From IMG/VR virus record IMGVR_UViG_3300010399_000001, positions 51,047 to 115,046 of that record: 64,000 nt of DNA, one strand, 5' to 3'. This DNA is from a virus. A program made the position numbers and the translations under genes. Positions 1 through 45,896 of the stretch are shown here, piece by piece (the stretch's first letter is position 1; each line of letters begins with the position of its first letter). The notes below the pieces were generated by a model. That model searched no databases, was not told where the DNA came from, and saw only the letters and a program-made list of their open reading frames with translations.

Positions 1-496
1 CGGCCTCTCGCGCCAGGCCGCGCTCATTCCGGCCATAGACGCGCTGAGACTTCTTCTTGGCTAATGCCCTTAGCCCATTGGCTAGGACCTCTAGCGCTTC
101 GGACTTGCGGCTTGCGGGGCGGCAGCAGCCGTCGCAGCCGTGGACCTGCCAGACATCGCGCCTGTCGTACCGCGCGAGCCAGTCCAGAGAGTCCGGGTCG
201 GGATGACCCACCCCGTGCGGGCAGATGCGCTCGCTCAGGGTCAGCTTCATCCCGTTGCGTACCACCTGGCGATCCATGCGGTGAACCAGCGGCCAGTGGT
301 TCATGTGGTGATTGGAGGGATTGTGGATGCAGCATCGCTGCCCCGCGCAGACCGAGGGGCTGTGGGTGTGCAGGACCGGACGACTATGGATCTCCTGATC
401 CGGACCATCCTTGCCGAGGATGGCGCTGATTTGATAGTCGTCGAAGATCATTGCATTGGCGATCCTGATGCCATCCCATGAACCGGACATGCTCAC
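1..496 (-). CDS. Cys/His-rich hypothetical phage protein, runs off the window start (not in the ORF track)
   Basis: Open frame from GTG 496 / ATG 490 to base 1: ...CAGQRCCIHNPSNHHMNHWP...ERICPHGVGHPDPD...HGCDGCC; GTGA overlap with the upstream stop. Confidence 0.7.
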   Translation of the reverse strand, partial: MSMSGSWDGIRIANAMIFDDYQISAILGKDGPDQEIHSRPVLHTHSPSVCAGQRCCIHNPSNHHMNHWPLVHRMDRQVVRNGMKLTLSERICPHGVGHPDPDSLDWLARYDRRDVWQVHGCDGCCRPASRKSEALEVLANGLRALAKKKSQRVYGRNERGLAREA

Positions 497-1029
497 TGCC
501 TGCTCCCCTCCGCCCATCGGCGGACGTTGCCGAGGTGCTTATCGGTGATACCGGTGCGAGGACTGACCGGCTCGTAGAGGGTCGGCGCGATCATACGGTC
601 CCGCATTCCGGCCTCGGTCAGATCCATCGGGGTGAACTCGTCATCCAGCCATGCGTACGGGCGATGGCGGACATACTCCTCCACGCTCGGCCGCTTCCAG
701 ATCCGCAGGGGATCGCCCCGCTGCCACACGCACTCGATGGTCGGTAACTGCGGCAGACCCAGGATGGGGGCGATCAGCTTGTTTGCCAGATCGTTCCACG
801 CGGTAGCCCAGACTAGATCCACAACGTCGGTCAGCTCAAGAAGCTGCCTGCCGTGATCGGGATTGAGCCACACCCGGATGCCACCCTTGACCCACGGGCG
901 GCCGAGTGGATCGGTGAATGCCCCGCTGAGCAGGCGGTGCGTCTGGAATCCCGGCGGCCTGCGGGTCGGCTTGGCCGCGTAGGGGTTGAGCGGACCGTCC
1001 ACATCGATCAGCAATAGCGGCTTGTTCAT
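493..1029 (-). CDS. HAD-superfamily protein, Swiss-Army-Knife RNA-repair-like HAD
   Basis: LLLIDVDGPLN (motif I), WATAW, WLDDE (motif IV); start reassigned to ATG 1029; directly downstream of Pnkp. Confidence 0.8.
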   Translation of the reverse strand: MNKPLLLIDVDGPLNPYAAKPTRRPPGFQTHRLLSGAFTDPLGRPWVKGGIRVWLNPDHGRQLLELTDVVDLVWATAWNDLANKLIAPILGLPQLPTIECVWQRGDPLRIWKRPSVEEYVRHRPYAWLDDEFTPMDLTEAGMRDRMIAPTLYEPVSPRTGITDKHLGNVRRWAEGSRQ

Positions 1030-1030
1030 C

Positions 1031-1993
1031 TCAGAAGTCTCCGTACTCGACCTGGTGGCAGGGCAGCTTGTAGACCAGCCGCCACAGATCGACCACCTGG
1101 TTGCGGTCGTCATAGACGGCCTCGACGTTGTAGCGGCCTCGGATGTTCTGCTCGAACAGCTGCGACTTGACCACGAAGTCCGGCCGCCTGTCCCCAGTGG
1201 GGCGCATGTGCAGGTCGCTGTACTTGATGTTGTGGGCTCGCAGCCACGCCTCGGTCTGCCTGCGGTACTCCTCCTGGCGGCCGGACAGAAGGATGATCTT
1301 GATCTCGCCGTCGACGTACGGGTAGATGTCGATCAGATTGGCAACTGCCTCGTTCAGGCTGTCGGTCTCCAGCTCCTCCAGGTCGTAGGGACCCCTATCC
1401 GCATGCTTCGCCAGGGTGCCGTCGATATCGAACAGCACGCACCAGGGCAGATCATCGTCGATAACGCAGGGCTGAACTGGGCGGATCAGGTCACGCCACT
1501 CGTTCATCCACTCATCGGTCAGCTTCCAGCCGTCCTTGCGGGTGGACTGATGGCGCTCCCACATACCCCGGATGACCGACTCGCCCACTCGCTCCCCATC
1601 GCGCCGCCCGGCGTCCACGGCGATGCACTCCTCGACCGTCATATCAGTCAGGTCGTGAACCCGGAAGATCACATTGCGGGTGGAGAGGGTCGTGCGGTAC
1701 CGATTGGGCAGCTTGTAGCCCATGTGGGTGTTGTCGATCACCACGTCGTATCCGGCGTCCACCGCGCTCATGACGCCGCGCAGCATGGCCTTCTGAACCA
1801 CCTTCTCGATGGCGTCATCCCATCTGGGGATGCTCATCATCCGGCGGTAGTCGTCCAGATTGAAGCGCATGGCCGAGATGCTGCGAGCGTACGTGCTCTT
1901 GCCAGAGCCGGGCAGGCCGTGCATCACATGGATCACCACCTCCTTACTGGATGGATCGTGACGCGGATCAGCCGCGAGATCGTAGACGCGCAT
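1031..1993 (-). CDS. pseT: Polynucleotide 5'-kinase/3'-phosphatase (T4 Pnkp-like)
   Basis: N-terminal P-loop GLPGSGKST plus IDNT; C-terminal HAD FDIDGTLA, SGR, RRPDFVVK, YDDRNQVV. Confidence 0.93.
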   Translation of the reverse strand: MRVYDLAADPRHDPSSKEVVIHVMHGLPGSGKSTYARSISAMRFNLDDYRRMMSIPRWDDAIEKVVQKAMLRGVMSAVDAGYDVVIDNTHMGYKLPNRYRTTLSTRNVIFRVHDLTDMTVEECIAVDAGRRDGERVGESVIRGMWERHQSTRKDGWKLTDEWMNEWRDLIRPVQPCVIDDDLPWCVLFDIDGTLAKHADRGPYDLEELETDSLNEAVANLIDIYPYVDGEIKIILLSGRQEEYRRQTEAWLRAHNIKYSDLHMRPTGDRRPDFVVKSQLFEQNIRGRYNVEAVYDDRNQVVDLWRLVYKLPCHQVEYGDF

Positions 1994-2042
1994 AGGTGTC
2001 TCCCGTCAGATGCAAGCGCTAGAGCGCTCCTAGCTTTATATA

Positions 2043-2056
2043 GAGTATTGTAGCAT
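2043..2056 (-). promoter_or_regulatory. Extended -10 promoter (TGCTACAAT) for pnkp; copy of a recurring phage motif
   Basis: Reverse complement ATGCTACAATACTC; identical copy at 59683-59696. Confidence 0.65.
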
Positions 2057-2081
2057 GTGCTTTAGATGAAGCTTGGATGTG

Positions 2082-2121
2082 CAGCTGCCCCGCTCTCAGG
2101 CCTGCGAGAGCGGGGCAGCTG
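2082..2121 (-). terminator. GC-rich hairpin after the Ro60 gene
   Basis: cagctgccccgctctc ... gagagcggggcagctg inverted repeat about 10 nt past the stop. Confidence 0.7.
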
Positions 2122-2132
2122 TATCAGCTCTG

Positions 2133-3797
2133 TTAGAAAGGCCAGCTACCATCACCGGCAGACAGCGAGGCCAGCATCGTGAACACCTTGTCGGAGAACC
2201 CGCCGATCTCGTACCGGTTCGGCTTGCTCGTGTCGATGCTGGATGCACCGTAACCCGAGGTGTTGATGCCGAACATCGGCACGCGGTCCGGAATGGCCTC
2301 CGACACGCTCATACCGCGCACCTTGCCGATCGCATCGTAGTAGCCGACCGAACCACCACCGGGGTAGTGGAACGCCTGCATGTCCGAGACGATGACCACC
2401 CGATCATGACCGGAGTAGCTGGCCTTGAGGGCGGCGACCGTCTCGGTACCGTGACCGACCGAGCCGACGCGCTTGCTGAATCCCTCGATGTCGCGCAGCA
2501 GGCTGCCGCCGTTCTTGAGCGGGTACTGGAAGACTCCGTTGGCGAAGCCGACCAGGTCCACATTCTTCGGACCGCACTTACGCGCGATCGCCACGCCGAT
2601 CAGAGCGCCGATATCGACATGACGGATGCTCGACTTGGCCGAGACGTTGCTGTGCATCGATCCGGAGGTGTCTACCAGGACCAGGGTGCGGCCCGGCAGG
2701 TTGGGGATGTTGGCGCATGCGTGACCCAGCGCCTCCTCCAGCGGCTGACCCCAGCGCAGCGAGTTGAGCGAGCGGTAAGCCGACAGGAACCGGTACGGGA
2801 ACTGGCGGGACTTGGCCACCTGAGCCGGGTCGCTGATGCGCGAGGCGACCTTCTCGTAGACCTCCTTGCCAAGCTTGGCCTCATCGAAGTTGCGCAGGTT
2901 GCGCAGCAGCGCCATGTAACCCATCGACGGGATGATCGCCTCCCAGGCGATGCGATCCATCGGGCCCTGGAGCCAGCCGGACAGCGCCTCCCAGGTGATG
3001 CCAGCCTCACGCAGCCGCTCCGCTGCACCGGAAGCCTTGACAAAGCTCCGGCGCTCAGCGAGGGGGAGGGACAGCAGCTCCTTGCGCTTGCGCAGCATCG
3101 TCAGCGACTCGGGGATCTCCTTGCCGCGCCCGTGCCTCTCGTCGATGATGTGCTCGAACAGGTCCCCCTGCTCGGGCGTGACGAATGCGGCGTTGAACCG
3201 GTCGACAGGGTGCACCATCTCGATCACGTCGGCGAAGCGCACACTCTTGTCCGGCGAGTCGTACTTGGAGTACGAGTACTCGCTGTAGAGGCGGCGCACC
3301 GCATCACCGGTACCGCGCTTGATCGAGATCGGGATGCGGTTGCGGCCATAGTTGGCGATCCAGTAGGCCAGCAGCTCCCCCGGCTCGTCGGCGCGAGAGC
3401 ACGCCAGGGAGATCAGGCGGCGGTTGATGCCGACCGGCACATCGTTGCGGATATCGGTCGGAGCCATGAGCGTGCGGGTACGCACCGCCTCGGCGGCGAT
3501 GACGATAGACGCGGTGCGCATGTTGGCCTCGTTGCGCAGCCACGGGATGAAGCCCAGCAGCCACTGCGGGTCCTCGCGCGCAACGGCGGCGGCCAGCTCC
3601 TTCAGGCGCTTGGCCTGGTCGCTCTTGGACTCGTAGAACTTGTCCTCGCCCATGTAGGTGACGGCCAGGATGAACAGGTCGCTCTTGGCGTCACGCTTGA
3701 ACGCCGCCCCACTCTCGAAGGTGGTGGTCTTCTCCCCCGTGGTGCGCACCGGCCCGAGGGTCGCAGTGCCACCCGAACGCTTGTTGAATCCAGACAT
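2133..3797 (-). CDS. rsr: Ro60/Rsr TROVE-domain RNA-binding protein with C-terminal vWA domain
   Basis: TROVE motifs (FYES, LRNEANMR, KYD, TWE, MGYMALLRNLRN, SRQFPYRFLSAY); vWA MIDAS DTSGSM, GT, VSDMQ. Confidence 0.95.
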   Translation of the reverse strand: MSGFNKRSGGTATLGPVRTTGEKTTTFESGAAFKRDAKSDLFILAVTYMGEDKFYESKSDQAKRLKELAAAVAREDPQWLLGFIPWLRNEANMRTASIVIAAEAVRTRTLMAPTDIRNDVPVGINRRLISLACSRADEPGELLAYWIANYGRNRIPISIKRGTGDAVRRLYSEYSYSKYDSPDKSVRFADVIEMVHPVDRFNAAFVTPEQGDLFEHIIDERHGRGKEIPESLTMLRKRKELLSLPLAERRSFVKASGAAERLREAGITWEALSGWLQGPMDRIAWEAIIPSMGYMALLRNLRNFDEAKLGKEVYEKVASRISDPAQVAKSRQFPYRFLSAYRSLNSLRWGQPLEEALGHACANIPNLPGRTLVLVDTSGSMHSNVSAKSSIRHVDIGALIGVAIARKCGPKNVDLVGFANGVFQYPLKNGGSLLRDIEGFSKRVGSVGHGTETVAALKASYSGHDRVVIVSDMQAFHYPGGGSVGYYDAIGKVRGMSVSEAIPDRVPMFGINTSGYGASSIDTSKPNRYEIGGFSDKVFTMLASLSAGDGSWPF

Positions 3798-3798
3798 G

Positions 3799-3827
3799 AA
3801 AAAACCCCTCTCGTCTTGACGGAGGGG
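3799..3827 (-). terminator. Intrinsic-terminator-like hairpin that sequesters the rsr Shine-Dalgarno
   Basis: Minus strand CCCCTC-CGTC-AA-GACG-A-GAGGGG-TTTTTT-C-ATG(rsr). Confidence 0.65.
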
Positions 3828-3834
3828 AAAGGCA

Positions 3835-3987
3835 TGGTAGCGCCCGAGATCAGAAGTCGGTGGCGGTGTTTTCAGTCTTATGCTCTACCTGACTGAGCTA
3901 CCCCACCCGAAGGCGGGGGCAGGATTCGAACCTGCGACCGTAAGATTAGCAATGAAGTATCCGTCACCTGCGCTTCGGGCGCTGCCA
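3835..3987 (-). ncRNA. yrlA: Y RNA unit 1, YrlA-type (circularly permuted tRNA-like domain)
   Basis: CCGAAGCGCAG...; T arm GCAGG-UUCGAAU-CCUGC, acceptor CCCCGCC-UUCG-GGUGGGG, D arm GCUC-AGUCAGGUA-GAGC; ...UGAUCUCGG; adjacent to rsr. Confidence 0.9.
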
Positions 3988-3994
3988 AAACCTT

Positions 3995-4081
3995 TCCCGA
4001 GATCAGTGTGAATGGCGGTATTATGCCTCGAACTACCATGTGAAGGTTATTGAGAAGTAACCGTCATTCTGCGCTTCGGGA
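3995..4081 (-). ncRNA. Y RNA unit 2 (short; hairpin with a tRNA-Val-like 7-nt loop)
   Basis: Same scaffold; insert ACC-UUCACAU-GGU in an imperfect hairpin. Confidence 0.8.
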
Positions 4082-4094
4082 TGAAGCCTTTGGT

Positions 4095-4204
4095 CCCTCC
4101 GAGATCAAGATGGCGATGGAGAGCGGGACTTGAACCCGCAGAATTCCGTTGCTTAGACAGAATCATTCAACCAATGAAGTAACCATCACCTGCGCTTCGG
4201 AGGG
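4095..4204 (-). ncRNA. Y RNA unit 3 (D-like arm, anticodon-like arm and T arm in normal tRNA order)
   Basis: CAUU-GGUUG-AAUG, AUUCUGU-CUAAGCA-ACGGAAU, GCGGG-UUCAAGU-CCCGC inside the scaffold. Confidence 0.82.
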
Positions 4205-4217
4205 TGAAGCAGTAGAT

Positions 4218-4370
4218 ATGGACATCCCCGAGATCGAGTCGACCAAGGTAACGTTAGGCGCTTTAGGCCACTAAGCTACCCCCGGATGAGCCCAGGGGGC
4301 AGGATTCGAACCTGCGATCTCCCGCTCCCAATGCGAAGTAACCCTATGTCTGCGCTTCGGGAATGTCCAT
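4218..4370 (-). ncRNA. yrlA: Y RNA unit 4, YrlA-type permuted tRNA-like domain
   Basis: T arm GCAGG-UUCGAAU-CCUGC, capped acceptor CCCCUGG/CCGGGGG, D arm GCUU-AGUGGCCUA-AAGC; terminal stem atggacat/atgtccat. Confidence 0.88.
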
Positions 4371-4382
4371 AACAAAGCAGGG

Positions 4383-4530
4383 GATGCGGTCCCGAGATCA
4401 ATTCGGCTGGGAGGTGTTTAACGTGCTGCCATTGCACCACCGGCCCAGGAGTGGACCGGACAGGATTCGAACCTGCATCTCTCCATTAGAAGTGAAGTAA
4501 CCCCTTATGCCTGCGCTTCGGGGCCGCATC
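4383..4530 (-). ncRNA. yrlA: Y RNA unit 5, YrlA-type permuted tRNA-like domain
   Basis: T arm GCAGG-UUCGAAU-CCUGU, acceptor CCGGUCC/GGGCCGG, D arm GUGC-AAUGGCA-GCAC; terminal stem gatgcgg/ccgcatc. Confidence 0.88.
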
Positions 4531-4559
4531 TTCTCATTCTCTATTCAGTTGTGAAAAGC

Positions 4560-4692
4560 ATCCCGAGATCAAGCCGGTGAACGAAAGCGCATTGGACCAC
4601 TCTGCCACGACCTGCCTGCACTAGTCAGACAGGCGCTGGGATTCGAACCCAGGTTCTCTGTGAGAAGTAACGCTCAACCTTCGCTTCGGGAT
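4560..4692 (-). ncRNA. yrlA: Y RNA unit 6, YrlA-type permuted tRNA-like domain with a long acceptor stem
   Basis: T arm CUGGG-UUCGAAU-CCCAG, extended stem CCUGUCUG/CAGGCAGG, Ser/Leu-like D arm GCAGAGUGGUCCAAUGC. Confidence 0.85.
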
Positions 4693-4703
4693 ATGAAGTT
4701 TGA

Positions 4704-4784
4704 CAGCTCCGAGATCAAGTCGATGCCAGGCGTTGGTGTCTAATTTACAGTTAGAAGTAACCCGGCTTCTTCGCTTCGGAACTG
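4704..4784 (-). ncRNA. Y RNA unit 7 (first transcribed; carries a tRNA-Tyr-like anticodon stem-loop)
   Basis: Scaffold plus UCUAA-CUGUAAA-UUAGA (5-bp stem, 7-nt loop CU-GUA-AA). Confidence 0.82.
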
Positions 4785-4789
4785 AGACT

Positions 4790-4818
4790 AAGCTACCGTG
4801 CTCATCGGCTAAGTGCAA
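4790..4818 (-). promoter_or_regulatory. Sigma70/HrdB-type promoter of the Y RNA-rsr operon
   Basis: TTGCAC-N17-TAGCTT on the minus strand; predicted start about 4784, the 5' end of unit 7. Confidence 0.75.
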
Positions 4819-5665: not shown

Positions 5666-6526
5666 CTACCTGCGAGGCTGGGGGAAGTTGTCGTTGGACA
5701 GTCCACCCTGCGGGAGCTGGAGCTTGTACCGCGACGCCTTAGAGCGGTACGCGTTCCATGCGTAGATGATGAATGCGATGTACACGTCGGACGGGATGCG
5801 CCGGTGCTCCTTCTGGCGACGGTCGTTCTCGCGCCGGATGCGGTCGCGCAGCACCAGGATCGGGTGATTGGCCTCCAGCCCCGCTCCGTCGCACAGGCGC
5901 TCCAGGAAGTACGTGCCTTCCACGGGATTGCTGTTCATCAGCAGCCAGTGCACGAAGGACAGGATGGAGGCGTGCACACCAACCTTGCGGTAGTTGGTGA
6001 TGCCGTAATCCACCGACACCCGCAGGTGCGGGTACCGGGCGAGCACGTCCTCCAGTTCAGAGTGGCTGGGGCGCAGGCCACTACCGCCCTGGACGTAGCA
6101 CCCAACCTCCCATAGGGCGATACGCCGCAGCGCCGCCGACAGGGTGGAGTAGTGCGACTCGCCAGCCAGGTTCAGCTGGTCACGGAACGCCCTCGGGCGG
6201 CCCGTATCGATCACCTTCTGGTCTTCGATCGAGGCTCCGTAGTGCACCAGAAGCTCTACGGTCGCACCAGACTGCGCGATAGCTGCCAGCCGGTGCTGAC
6301 CATCCACGATGACAAGGCCGCCATCCTGGGTCCTGGCGAACTCGACGGCCTTGGCGATGCGACGCCAGCGACCAGCGAGCATGTCGCGGGCGTACTGATC
6401 CACGACGGACTGGGAGATCGTGCGGTTGTGGCCGTTGCGCGTCTCCAGCCACAGCTTCGCCATGGCGGGAGTGACCTTCACCCACTGCGGGGCGGTCGGA
6501 GGTTCAGATTGAATGGCCTTGGGCAC
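5666..6526 (-). CDS. ParB/Srx-fold (DGQHR) DNA-associated protein
   Basis: VTPAMAKLWL..NR......V..YARDM..GRW...DGQHRLAAI; GTG start after the AGAAAGG RBS. Confidence 0.8.
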   Translation of the reverse strand: MPKAIQSEPPTAPQWVKVTPAMAKLWLETRNGHNRTISQSVVDQYARDMLAGRWRRIAKAVEFARTQDGGLVIVDGQHRLAAIAQSGATVELLVHYGASIEDQKVIDTGRPRAFRDQLNLAGESHYSTLSAALRRIALWEVGCYVQGGSGLRPSHSELEDVLARYPHLRVSVDYGITNYRKVGVHASILSFVHWLLMNSNPVEGTYFLERLCDGAGLEANHPILVLRDRIRRENDRRQKEHRRIPSDVYIAFIIYAWNAYRSKASRYKLQLPQGGLSNDNFPQPRR

Positions 6527-6716
6527 GTCATGCCTTTCTAGTGATGCTCTCGGCAAGCTCAGCATGTCAATCCCTGAGCATGTGAGCATCGTAGCATAAT
6601 GAATATCACCGGGCAAACATCTGAGCGCATCTTTATCTCTAGCTATTGATATCGCAAGGTGTGCGCTATGCGCGCAATGTGCTACGCTGCTCTCAGCGCT
6701 CCCGCTCATGCTTCCC

Positions 6717-6889
6717 CGCCCCCCAGCGGAGCGGGGGCGCGCTGCCTCCGCCCTCGCTCGTTGCCCCACGCTGCGAGCGAGGGCGGCTCCAGGGCACCCG
6801 GGTTCGAGACCTAATCGCCCGGGAGATCGGCCGTCGCTGGGGGCGGCCGATCTGCGACCCCGCCCTCACCGCACTGGGGGCGGGGTCGT
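6717..6889 (+). ncRNA. Putative structured RNA or DNA element of five consecutive hairpins
   Basis: Stems at 6717-6739, 6748-6786, 6797-6823, 6824-6853, 6854-6889; promoter-like motif at 6679-6692. Confidence 0.5.
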
Positions 6890-7804: not shown

Positions 7805-8413
7805 ATGGCTACCTTCCTTGGGTTCGAGACTCTCAAGCTCGACGAACTGATTCCCTTCCCCGGCAATGCGCGTCGCGGTGACATCGACGGCATCCGCTCC
7901 TCGGTGCGCGCTCACGGCCAGTACCGCTCCCTGGTCGTTAGGCGCACTCCTGGTGGGGATGTGGTGCTCGCTGGCAACCACACGCTGCGCGCCCTGATCG
8001 CCGAAGGATTCACCGAGGCGCGCTGCGAGGTCATCGAGTGCAGCGAGGCTGACGCTATCAAGATCAACGTCGGAGACAACGGCTGGGGCGACAAGGCGAC
8101 CAATGACGAGAGCGCGCTGGCCGACCTGCTGGAGCTGCTGAACGGTGACTTTGAGGGCACCAGCTACACCCAGCAGGACTTCGAGGACATGCGCGGGCTG
8201 TGGGATGCGGATGAGAACTCCACGCCCGATCTGGACAAGCTGGCGGACGAGCTGGGAGATCCGGTCGACTCGGATCTGTGGCCCACGCTTCGCTTCAAGG
8301 TCCCCCCGCAGGTGCGCGACGACTTCTATGACCTGACGAACAATTGCGCCAATCCGAATGACGACAACAATCGGTTCATGCACCTGATCCAGAAGGTTCG
8401 GAGTGCAGAGTGA
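7805..8413 (+). CDS. ParB-like N-terminal domain protein leading the dpd cluster
   Basis: L.PFPGNARRGD...I..S...HGQYR.LVV....VLAGNHTLRA...DN. Confidence 0.85.
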   Translation: MATFLGFETLKLDELIPFPGNARRGDIDGIRSSVRAHGQYRSLVVRRTPGGDVVLAGNHTLRALIAEGFTEARCEVIECSEADAIKINVGDNGWGDKATNDESALADLLELLNGDFEGTSYTQQDFEDMRGLWDADENSTPDLDKLADELGDPVDSDLWPTLRFKVPPQVRDDFYDLTNNCANPNDDNNRFMHLIQKVRSAE

Positions 8414-9519
8414 CCTTCAGGTTCCTAGTCTCGTTCCACTATCACGAGAAGACGGACCTACAGGCGATCGTCGATGCCTACAACGGCCCATGCGAAGTGT
8501 TCGCCGACTCCGGCGCGTACTCCGCCGCCTCTCTCGGTGCGACGATCAAGCTCGCCGACTACGCCGCATGGCTCAAGGATTGGGAACACCTTCTGACCAT
8601 CAAGGCGACGCTGGATGTGATCGGGGACCCGCAGGCCACCGCCCGCAACACCCGCACGCTGGAGCGCCAGGGCATCAACGTGCTTCCCGTCTTCCATGTA
8701 GGCACCCCATGGGGCGAGCTGGAGAAGATGGTCAAGCAATACGACTATCTGGCCCTCGGGGGAATGGTCCCGCACAGCGGCAAGGCCGATGCGGTGATGC
8801 GCTGGCTGGTGAAGGCGTTCCAGGTGGCAAGGGAGACCGGCACCGTCTATCACGGCTTCGGTCAGACCAGACTGGAGACCATCAAGAAGCTGCCGTTCTA
8901 TTCGGTGGACTCCTCGGCATGGTCATCGGGGATGCGCTACGGCACGATCGTCCTATGGGATGAGAAGTCATCGAACTTCATCAAGCTACAGGCGTCAGAC
9001 CCGGCTCAAGCGCGCCGCTATGCAGCTCTCTTGCGCTCTCATGGCGCTAATCCGTCCCTGGTCGCGAAGCCAGGCTTCGCGATGCTCTCGCGCCGTACGC
9101 CGGAGCAGTTCAGGCGTGAGGTCTCGATGATGCGCGGAGCGCCCGCCATCGCCTATATGCGCATGGGGGAGTATCTGGCGCGGCGTCACAAGGTGCCCAG
9201 GCCCGCGAGCCTCGGCGATGGAAAGAACGGTACTGCCGTCTATGTGGCGGACGCCGCGATGAGGCATCTGGTGGACGCCGCACCCATCGTCAATGACGTT
9301 GGAACAGCTGTGTACCTGGCTGCGGATACCGGCGGCAGCTGCATGAAGATGGCGCTGGACCATATGCGCGATACCGGTACGCATGTCTATCTGGCCAACA
9401 CGGCTGCCATCAATCTGCGCGGCGCGGCAATGGTGGCGGGTGGCGTAGACGCTAACGAGGTAGACAAGAGTGTCTACATCGACGAGATCCGAAAGAAGAA
9501 GGATGGGGAGAATGAGTAA
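8410..9519 (+). CDS. dpdA: DpdA-like 7-deazaguanine DNA transglycosylase (TGT fold)
   Basis: DSGAYS, LDVIGD, PVFH, LALGG, YHGFG, SVDSSAW; directly upstream of queCDE-folE. Confidence 0.8.
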   Translation: MTFRFLVSFHYHEKTDLQAIVDAYNGPCEVFADSGAYSAASLGATIKLADYAAWLKDWEHLLTIKATLDVIGDPQATARNTRTLERQGINVLPVFHVGTPWGELEKMVKQYDYLALGGMVPHSGKADAVMRWLVKAFQVARETGTVYHGFGQTRLETIKKLPFYSVDSSAWSSGMRYGTIVLWDEKSSNFIKLQASDPAQARRYAALLRSHGANPSLVAKPGFAMLSRRTPEQFRREVSMMRGAPAIAYMRMGEYLARRHKVPRPASLGDGKNGTAVYVADAAMRHLVDAAPIVNDVGTAVYLAADTGGSCMKMALDHMRDTGTHVYLANTAAINLRGAAMVAGGVDANEVDKSVYIDEIRKKKDGENE

Positions 9520-45828: not shown

Positions 45829-45896
45829 TGCGCCCATGAGGATTTGAACCTCAAACCTCCGGTAAACCGGTGCTCTGGCAGTTGAGCTACAGGCGC
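45829..45896 (-). ncRNA. tRNA-like RNA lacking an anticodon loop (4-nt loop)
   Basis: GCGCCUG/UGGGCGC acceptor, D arm GCUC-AACUGCCA-GAGC, CCGG-UUUA-CCGG, T arm UGAGG-UUCAAAU-CCUCA; hairpin 45789-45826 follows. Confidence 0.8.

Follow-up and report, generated by a model that had tools for sequence, protein, structure and literature searches.

The record IMGVR_UViG_3300010399_000001, from an uncultured actinobacterial phage, carries, packed into 4.3 kb, a gene for the RNA-binding protein Ro60 (rsr) that is preceded by an array of Y RNAs and followed by genes for a polynucleotide kinase-phosphatase (Pnkp) and a second, stand-alone phosphatase of the HAD superfamily. The stretch that we analyzed (the window, 64,000 nucleotides) covers positions 51047-115046 of this complete 115,046-bp IMG/VR virus record, which has direct terminal repeats. 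The locus lies on the minus strand at window positions 493-4784, in the order Y RNA array, terminator-like hairpin, rsr, pnkp, HAD gene. We read it as a phage RNA-damage-response cluster whose parts share one pathway rather than one machine, a reading in which our confidence is evenly divided. The analysis shows the identities of the genes, their intact catalytic motifs, the covariation of the Y RNA scaffold, the absence of a ligase from the phage genome, and the linkage of these genes in other viruses. A preliminary description made from the sequence had named co-oriented Y RNAs, a TROVE-vWA gene, a kinase-phosphatase, and a second HAD gene, and all of these components were borne out.

Seven tandem Y-RNA-like units (U1 to U7) lie 40-990 nt upstream of rsr on the same strand. 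The units are built on a common scaffold, with CCGAAGCG on the 5' side, followed by GGTTACTTC (GGATACTTC in U7), and with TGATCTCGG (CGATCTCGG in U4) on the 3' side. CCGAAGCG has 12 matches in the 64-kb window, 7 of which fall inside the 810-nt array (3.4 are expected by chance window-wide), and its copies alternate in register with the 3' motif across the array. In the predicted folds, the ends of every unit are paired and CCGAAGCG pairs with GAUCUCGG. The flanks beyond the invariant CCGA:UCGG core differ in sequence from unit to unit and nonetheless retain complementarity over 2-10 bp. Alignment of the seven units revealed double compensatory changes at five of the nine consensus stem pairs, and an inner second helix, judged by eye, also seems to covary. 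In Mycobacterium smegmatis, Ro60 probably contacts a 5' motif that includes CGAA (PMC4201824); in the array units, the G of the published GNCGAAN0-1G motif is lost.

The payloads between the scaffold strands vary, and U2, U3, U4, and U7 contain the T-arm-like GGTTCGAATCC together with D-arm-like hairpins. U7 (3839-3983, minus strand, as are all units) is the best match to the YrlA family and aligns with the full Rfam model (RF02553) at 50.2 bits (E = 5.7e-10), a score that does not reach the gathering score of 69. Partial YrlA matches were obtained for U4 (4223-4365; 27.9 bits), which folds into stems and whose closing stem continues for 10 bp beyond the conserved CCGA:UCGG, and for U3 (4387-4527; 25.4 bits), which also scores 30.6 bits on the tRNA model, over the tRNA threshold. 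U2 (4558-4694) adds further hairpins to its T-arm-like element, and U5 (4094-4205) has a T-arm-like hairpin and one more stem-loop. The remaining two units are short and have no T arm: U6 (3992-4084) is YrlB-like, and U1 (4704-4784), identified by its scaffold motifs and fold, carries as its payload (4739-4755) a 5-bp hairpin with the 7-nt loop CUGUAAA that resembles the anticodon arm of tRNA-Tyr.

We considered whether a seven-unit array is unique to this phage and ruled this out. Up to seven CGAAG...TACTTC scaffold units lie immediately upstream of Ro60 on other viral contigs, at L058:5710-6900 and L072:6379-6900, with seven scaffold matches in L058 and six in L072, where two matches lie 5 nt from each other. 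A large Y RNA array is therefore a lineage trait and not a singleton. An IMG/VR scan with the Y scaffold pattern returned three matches, with no near relative among them, and neither megablast of the locus against phages nor a single-protein scan of IMG/VR detected relatives.

The rsr gene (2133-3797, minus strand) encodes a protein of 554 amino acids that matches the Pfam TROVE domain (1.8e-14, over the cut-off) and phrog_850 (2.8e-50). Its C-terminal vWA domain contains the motif of a MIDAS (metal ion-dependent adhesion site), VDTSGSM, which is kept among 16 homologues. The best match of known structure is Ro60 of Thermus phage phiLo (9kop, 3.5e-23). Identity is 52-58% to Rsr of Streptomyces and Catenulispora versus 35-42% to Ro of cultured actinophages, and the higher identity to bacterial Rsr hints that the phage may have captured its Ro60 separately from a host.

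The pnkp gene (1031-1993, minus strand) encodes a bifunctional 5'-kinase/3'-phosphatase of 320 amino acids. The protein matches AAA_33 (4.6e-12) and HAD_PNKP (1.8e-46), and both active sites are intact: the P-loop GLPGSGKST and DDYRR in the N-terminal kinase, and DIDGT and YDDRN in the C-terminal phosphatase. By type it is a T4/Pnkp1 enzyme: among proteins of known structure, it best matches Pnkp1 from the Pnkp1-Rnl-Hen1 complex, end to end (4xrp, 3e-39, residues 23-320), and next T4 Pnkp (1ltq), over the phosphatase domain. The co-oriented gene downstream (493-1029) encodes a stand-alone, capless HAD phosphatase of 178 amino acids; a longer open reading frame of 206 amino acids was rejected in favor of this one, which starts at 1029 and ends at 493. 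The protein is close to HAD_SAK_2 (PF18143): its score of 27.0 bits falls just short of the 27.5 cut-off, and this family is matched at E <= 0.001 by 17 of the 23 close homologues. HAD motifs I-IV (D9/D11, T76, K112, and D129/D130) are invariant among the 23 homologues. An AlphaFold2 model (predicted local distance difference test score of 91) has a HAD Rossmannoid fold, with the capless HADs MDP-1, KdsC, and Scp1 as its nearest folds, with template modeling scores of ~0.5.

Signals between the genes suggest how the locus may be transcribed. A bulged hairpin with a U6 tail follows U7 (3799-3827, minus strand; -15 kcal/mol, z = -2.8) and resembles a terminator. The Shine-Dalgarno sequence of rsr, GAGAGGGG, sits in the 3' arm of this hairpin and the U tract stops 2 nt before the rsr ATG, so the interval from hairpin to start codon is too short to hold a promoter of rsr's own. 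We read the hairpin as a putative attenuator inside a Y RNA-rsr transcript, and its arrangement with the Shine-Dalgarno sequence could set the ratio of Y RNA to Ro60 and gate rsr translation. Directly 3' of the rsr stop codon, 17 bp pair perfectly in a hairpin that lacks a U tract (2082-2121, minus strand), and the whole 142-nt rsr-pnkp intergenic region is predicted to fold at -56.8 kcal/mol (z = -4.3). The hairpin is followed by TGcTACAAT, an extended -10-like site recognized by its match to the consensus (2047-2055, minus strand), then by a GGGAG ribosome-binding site and the pnkp ATG. A single nucleotide separates the pnkp stop codon from the HAD start codon (TGAgATG), an arrangement that predicts translational coupling of the two genes. 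From these signals, two transcription units are likely, one containing Y1-7 and rsr and the other pnkp, HAD, and downstream genes, and they are possibly joined by read-through. Our promoter statements rest on reading the sequence; a strict sigma-70 scan of the locus found no promoter, and the strict scan also missed the bulged terminator-like hairpin.

No ligase accompanies these healing enzymes. Six-frame family searches of the complete 115-kb genome detected no RtcB, Rnl1, Rnl2/5, ATP-dependent DNA ligase, or NAD-dependent DNA ligase, and tblastn of the genome with five ligases from related loci, at E values up to 10, returned nothing below E = 0.2. As a control, the ligase family PF09511 was matched in other viral records and gave no match in any control genome. 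A CCA-adding enzyme was likewise absent in the six-frame search of the whole genome. We also inspected three neighboring proteins as possible hidden ligases and rejected each: a 461-amino-acid downstream protein resembles actinobacterial HTH_36 proteins and has no ligase features, a 294-amino-acid upstream protein has no family match and no KxDG seen in its translation, and a 175-amino-acid Cys/His-rich protein belongs to no credible family.

In other viruses, the enzyme that turns up near Ro60 most often is a phosphatase, ahead of any kinase or ligase. We surveyed 80 viral (IMG/VR) and 80 bacterial HAD loci and scored Ro60, and in the bacterial loci also Pnkp, within 10 kb of the HAD gene. 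Ro60 was present in 16 of the 80 viral loci, which fall into 11 clusters at 70% HAD identity and show at least five arrangements; in L010 the order is HAD, tRNA-like and YrlA-like RNAs, Ro60. When we counted domains over whole records, TROVE was found anywhere in 19 of 50 HAD-bearing viral records and in 11 of the 28 records that are at least 90% complete. Among cultured phages, the HAD family is found only in seven Streptomyces phages, all seven of which encode Ro60, some 30 kb off. In viruses, the HAD-Ro60 association is real but not obligate, and the common descent of large actinophages confounds it.

Ro60 and Pnkp also recur together. The nearest Ro60 homologues (77, 75, and 63% identity) are on single contigs of 113875, 97785, and 33720 bp, and, among relatives with long contigs, those whose Pnkp is most similar (76, 62, and 52% identity) have contigs of the same three sizes; the nearest HAD homologue (59% identity) is on the 113875-bp contig. 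A Pnkp of 86% identity is on a short contig of 4378 bp. Taking equal contig size as a proxy for co-location of Ro60, Pnkp, and HAD in these three relatives, the genes are thus co-inherited in the closest relatives of the phage. Beyond them, three other contigs, viral or from metagenomes, cluster Ro60, a ligase, and Pnkp. The gene orders are Ro60-x-x-Rnl1-like-RlaP-Pnkp in L160, Ro60-x-metallophosphoesterase-Rnl2-like-x-Pnkp in L085, and Ro60-Thg1-like (PF04446)-Rnl1-like-Pnkp in G083 (IMGVR_UViG_3300005337_000004), a complete 124.7-kb phage whose locus was joined from L330 and L331 across the terminal repeat, where arbitrary contig ends had split it. The ligases of L160 and G083 are 54% identical, and that of L085 is 44% identical to gp85 of mycobacteriophage LeBron; two different ligase types therefore came to sit between Ro60 and Pnkp. 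Full-length Pnkp is 0.14, 2.4, 3.0, and 3.6 kb from Ro60 in four cases, two of which were found only through this adjacency, and 18 kb away in G090. A further variant occurs at L138:6911-10193, where Ro60 is followed after 340 nt by a 142-amino-acid, stand-alone PNKP-type HAD without a kinase and then by a DUF7873 protein. In cultured phages, Ro and Pnkp are ~10-50 kb apart (~50 kb in LuckySocke, ~10 kb in LeBron), and in GiJojo and Atuin, Ro lies within tRNA arrays with no Pnkp close by.

The preliminary description had proposed that Ro60 is coupled here to the Pnkp route of end healing instead of the RtcB route. This stands in part: the phage has no RtcB and Ro60-Pnkp clusters recur, but the phage encodes no ligase of any kind. 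RtcB is found in 1 of 50 Ro60-bearing viral records, and the idea of an alternative to RtcB is right in spirit because ATP-dependent ligases are more numerous than RtcB in actinophage Ro60 loci.

According to our preferred reading, the seven Y RNAs and rsr would be made from one transcript, in which the internal attenuator hairpin would hold the Y RNAs in excess over rsr mRNA. In each Y RNA, Ro60 would bind the bulged helix of the constant scaffold (CCGAAGCG:GAUCUCGG), from which the seven different payloads would protrude. Pnkp and the coupled HAD would remodel RNA ends made by metal-independent host ribonucleases, so that 5'-OH becomes 5'-phosphate and 3'-OH is formed from 3'-phosphate or 2',3'-cyclic phosphate. 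The shared step would be the cleaning of blocked 3' ends, after which broken structured RNAs could be handled by Ro60-Y ribonucleoproteins (RNPs) and host enzymes. We propose 3'-end cleaning as the shared step because the phage has no ligase and a phosphatase is the commonest enzyme near Ro60. We infer the substrates, the expression of the locus, any contact between Ro60 and the enzymes, and the final fate of the RNA, whether resealing by a host ligase or decay.

Several observations weigh against a shared pathway and would fit a locus whose parts are neighbors without a common job, an explanation that we take as a serious rival but hold less probable. The Ro60-Y RNP and Pnkp-HAD would then act independently, and their adjacency would reflect the clustering of early nucleic-acid genes: the RNP might, for example, hijack host polynucleotide phosphorylase (PNPase) or serve as a set of tRNA-like decoys, and Pnkp-HAD would heal 3'-phosphate/5'-OH nicks in phage DNA, or RNA, with host LigA as the sealing enzyme. 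The 17-bp hairpin and promoter-like site part rsr from pnkp. The wider flanks of the locus hold genes of DNA metabolism (ParB-like, RNase H, RecE-like, endonuclease VII-like, and HNH), and Pnkp could therefore serve DNA end repair with host LigA; the missing RNA ligase also fits DNA repair that uses a host DNA ligase. Adjacency of Ro60 and Pnkp is rare: in ~160 Ro60 loci from IMG/VR and metagenomes, Pnkp lies within 7 kb in only 4. Phages with Ro60 mostly have no Pnkp, and the majority of those with Pnkp have no Ro60. A PNKP-type HAD occurs anywhere in 6 of 50 Ro60-bearing viral records, three with full-length Pnkp, and Pnkp does not count as enriched with Ro60 when this is set beside 2386 of 50697 phage records overall, a rough comparison whose base is not one of comparable actinophages. 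LuckySocke, Alone3, and LeBron hold Ro and Pnkp 10-50 kb apart, amid replication genes. As for the HAD partner, neither Ro60 nor Pnkp was found within 10 kb in any of the 80 bacterial HAD loci, by which we reject the HAD as an obligate partner of bacterial Rsr, and its association with Ro60 in viruses may partly stem from the shared ancestry of large actinophages. On the other hand, where Ro60 and full-length Pnkp occur on one record they are often close (the four cases at 0.14-3.6 kb), RNA ligases and tRNA-repair enzymes lie between them in the close cases other than the window, and the HAD is linked to Ro60 in viruses, all of which argue against neighbors that merely happen to adjoin.

A second rival builds on the model of the preliminary description: a T4-like heal-and-seal repair of tRNAs cut by host anticodon nucleases, in which Pnkp and HAD would be tethered by Y RNAs to the broken tRNAs and a host or unrecognized ligase would seal. 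The T4/Pnkp1 type of the phage Pnkp, with both active sites intact, speaks for it, as do the relatives in which Rnl1-like or Rnl2-like ligases, RlaP, and a Thg1-like enzyme separate Ro60 from Pnkp, and the apparent tRNA-like character of several Y RNA payloads. However, the route is incomplete in this phage because its genome encodes no ligase, as judged both by the six-frame family searches and by tblastn, and the 461- and 294-amino-acid neighbors have no ligase features. Host RtcB requires unhealed ends, so Pnkp would oppose RtcB, which we also count against this model. We regard it as unlikely, and we treat as purely conjectural both the idea that Y RNAs tether the healing enzymes and any action against abortive infection. 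More improbable still, in our estimate, though the most novel of the readings, is that ends are healed in order to be degraded and not religated. The phosphatases and the Pnkp kinase would remove 2',3'-cyclic or 3'-phosphates from, and phosphorylate the 5'-OH ends of, tRNA or rRNA fragments cut by host defense ribonucleases, which would then be fed to host PNPase guided by Ro60-Y RNA and to 5'-phosphate-dependent RNases. Jammed or alarm-signaling fragments would thereby be cleared, and the seven payloads would be adaptors or decoys for different partners. If true, this would account for the observation that a lone phosphatase is a more frequent partner of phage Ro60 than a kinase or ligase.

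The G+C content is ~62%, and the phage genes have their homologues in Actinobacteria or actinophages. ARAGORN called just three tRNAs in the whole genome. A tRNA-like gene at 45829-45896 (minus strand), which ARAGORN did not call, scores 53.6 bits on the tRNA model and has its anticodon loop deleted. At 8410-9519 (plus strand) is a queuine tRNA-ribosyltransferase-like gene (phrog_887, phrog_7068), adjoined by ParB-like genes (7805-8413 and 5666-6769); we suspect that it serves 7-deazaguanine modification of DNA rather than tRNA modification. Downstream of the HAD gene, the gene for the 175-amino-acid Cys/His-rich protein (1-517, minus strand) runs off the window edge and is complete at L169:11036-11563. 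In Streptomyces phage LuckySocke and in G092 the protein again adjoins Pnkp, and in L043, L080, and L128 it is near Ro60; the gene may belong to the module.

These comparisons offer a handle on the function of Ro60 and Y RNAs: actinophages repeatedly set Ro60 beside enzymes that heal RNA ends for ATP-dependent ligases and not for RtcB, in clusters that hold two independent ligase types and a Thg1-like tRNA 5'-end repair enzyme. A second handle is that a small capless HAD is the commonest enzyme near phage Ro60 and that this phage keeps healing enzymes without any ligase. If the link is functional, 3'-end dephosphorylation would be a step on which Ro60 RNPs depend. If it is not, the locus is a compact example of a known phage accessory kit.

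Among known systems, rsr-yrlBA-rtcBA of Salmonella Typhimurium (PMC7790460, PMC4201824) similarly places Ro60 beside RNA end-processing enzymes, together with Y RNAs encoded on the same strand; the tRNA likeness of at least one Y RNA is a further, probable parallel. In contrast to that operon, the locus described here is in a phage, has seven Y RNAs rather than two, and has them upstream of rsr. The phage is also without RtcB (RtcA and RtcR were not searched), and its enzymes would yield 3'-OH/5'-phosphate ends, the opposite of RtcB chemistry. The position of the Y RNAs is that seen in Mycobacterium smegmatis, where YrlA and YrlB are upstream of rsr and are processed from one precursor (PMC4201824). 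The phage Pnkp shares its two-domain architecture and motifs with the T4 Pnkp and Rnl1 pair and with Pnkp1-Rnl-Hen1; unlike these systems, the phage has neither ligase nor Hen1, and it has an extra stand-alone HAD and adjoining Ro60 and Y RNAs.

The cluster L1 mycobacteriophage LeBron is, like this phage, an actinophage with both Ro60 and Pnkp; its gp53 is Ro-like, gp74 is Pnkp, and gp85 is an RNA ligase (PMC13148394). The closest cultured-phage homologues of the phage Pnkp are those of cluster L mycobacteriophages, including LeBron's, at 38% identity. Whereas the genes in LeBron extend over 16 kb and include the RNA ligase, only 140 nt separate Ro60 from Pnkp in this phage, and they are joined by a second HAD and no ligase. 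Thermus phage phiLo, in which Ro60 works with Yrl1/Yrl2 and host PNPase (PMC12135203), shares a phage Ro60 and upstream Y-like RNAs with the CGAA motif. It differs in having two Y RNAs and a Ro60 of ~24% identity, and PMC12135203 mentions no Pnkp, polynucleotide kinase, or RtcB. The phage RNA-repair components listed by Iyer et al. 2021 (PMC7824862) include TROVE, PNK-HAD, and stand-alone Swiss-army-knife HADs; the kinases and phosphatases of those sets accompany ATP-grasp ligases, whereas this phage lacks the ligase and has a seven-unit Y RNA array. Earlier reports thus already describe Ro60 with Y RNAs, Pnkp, and Swiss-army-knife HADs in phages (PMC4201824, PMC12135203, PMC7824862). New relative to these reports are the tight packing of Ro60, Pnkp, and HAD without a ligase, the quantified, virus-specific linkage of Ro60 and HAD, and the seven-unit Y RNA array, which is at the top of the observed range and is equalled by L058.

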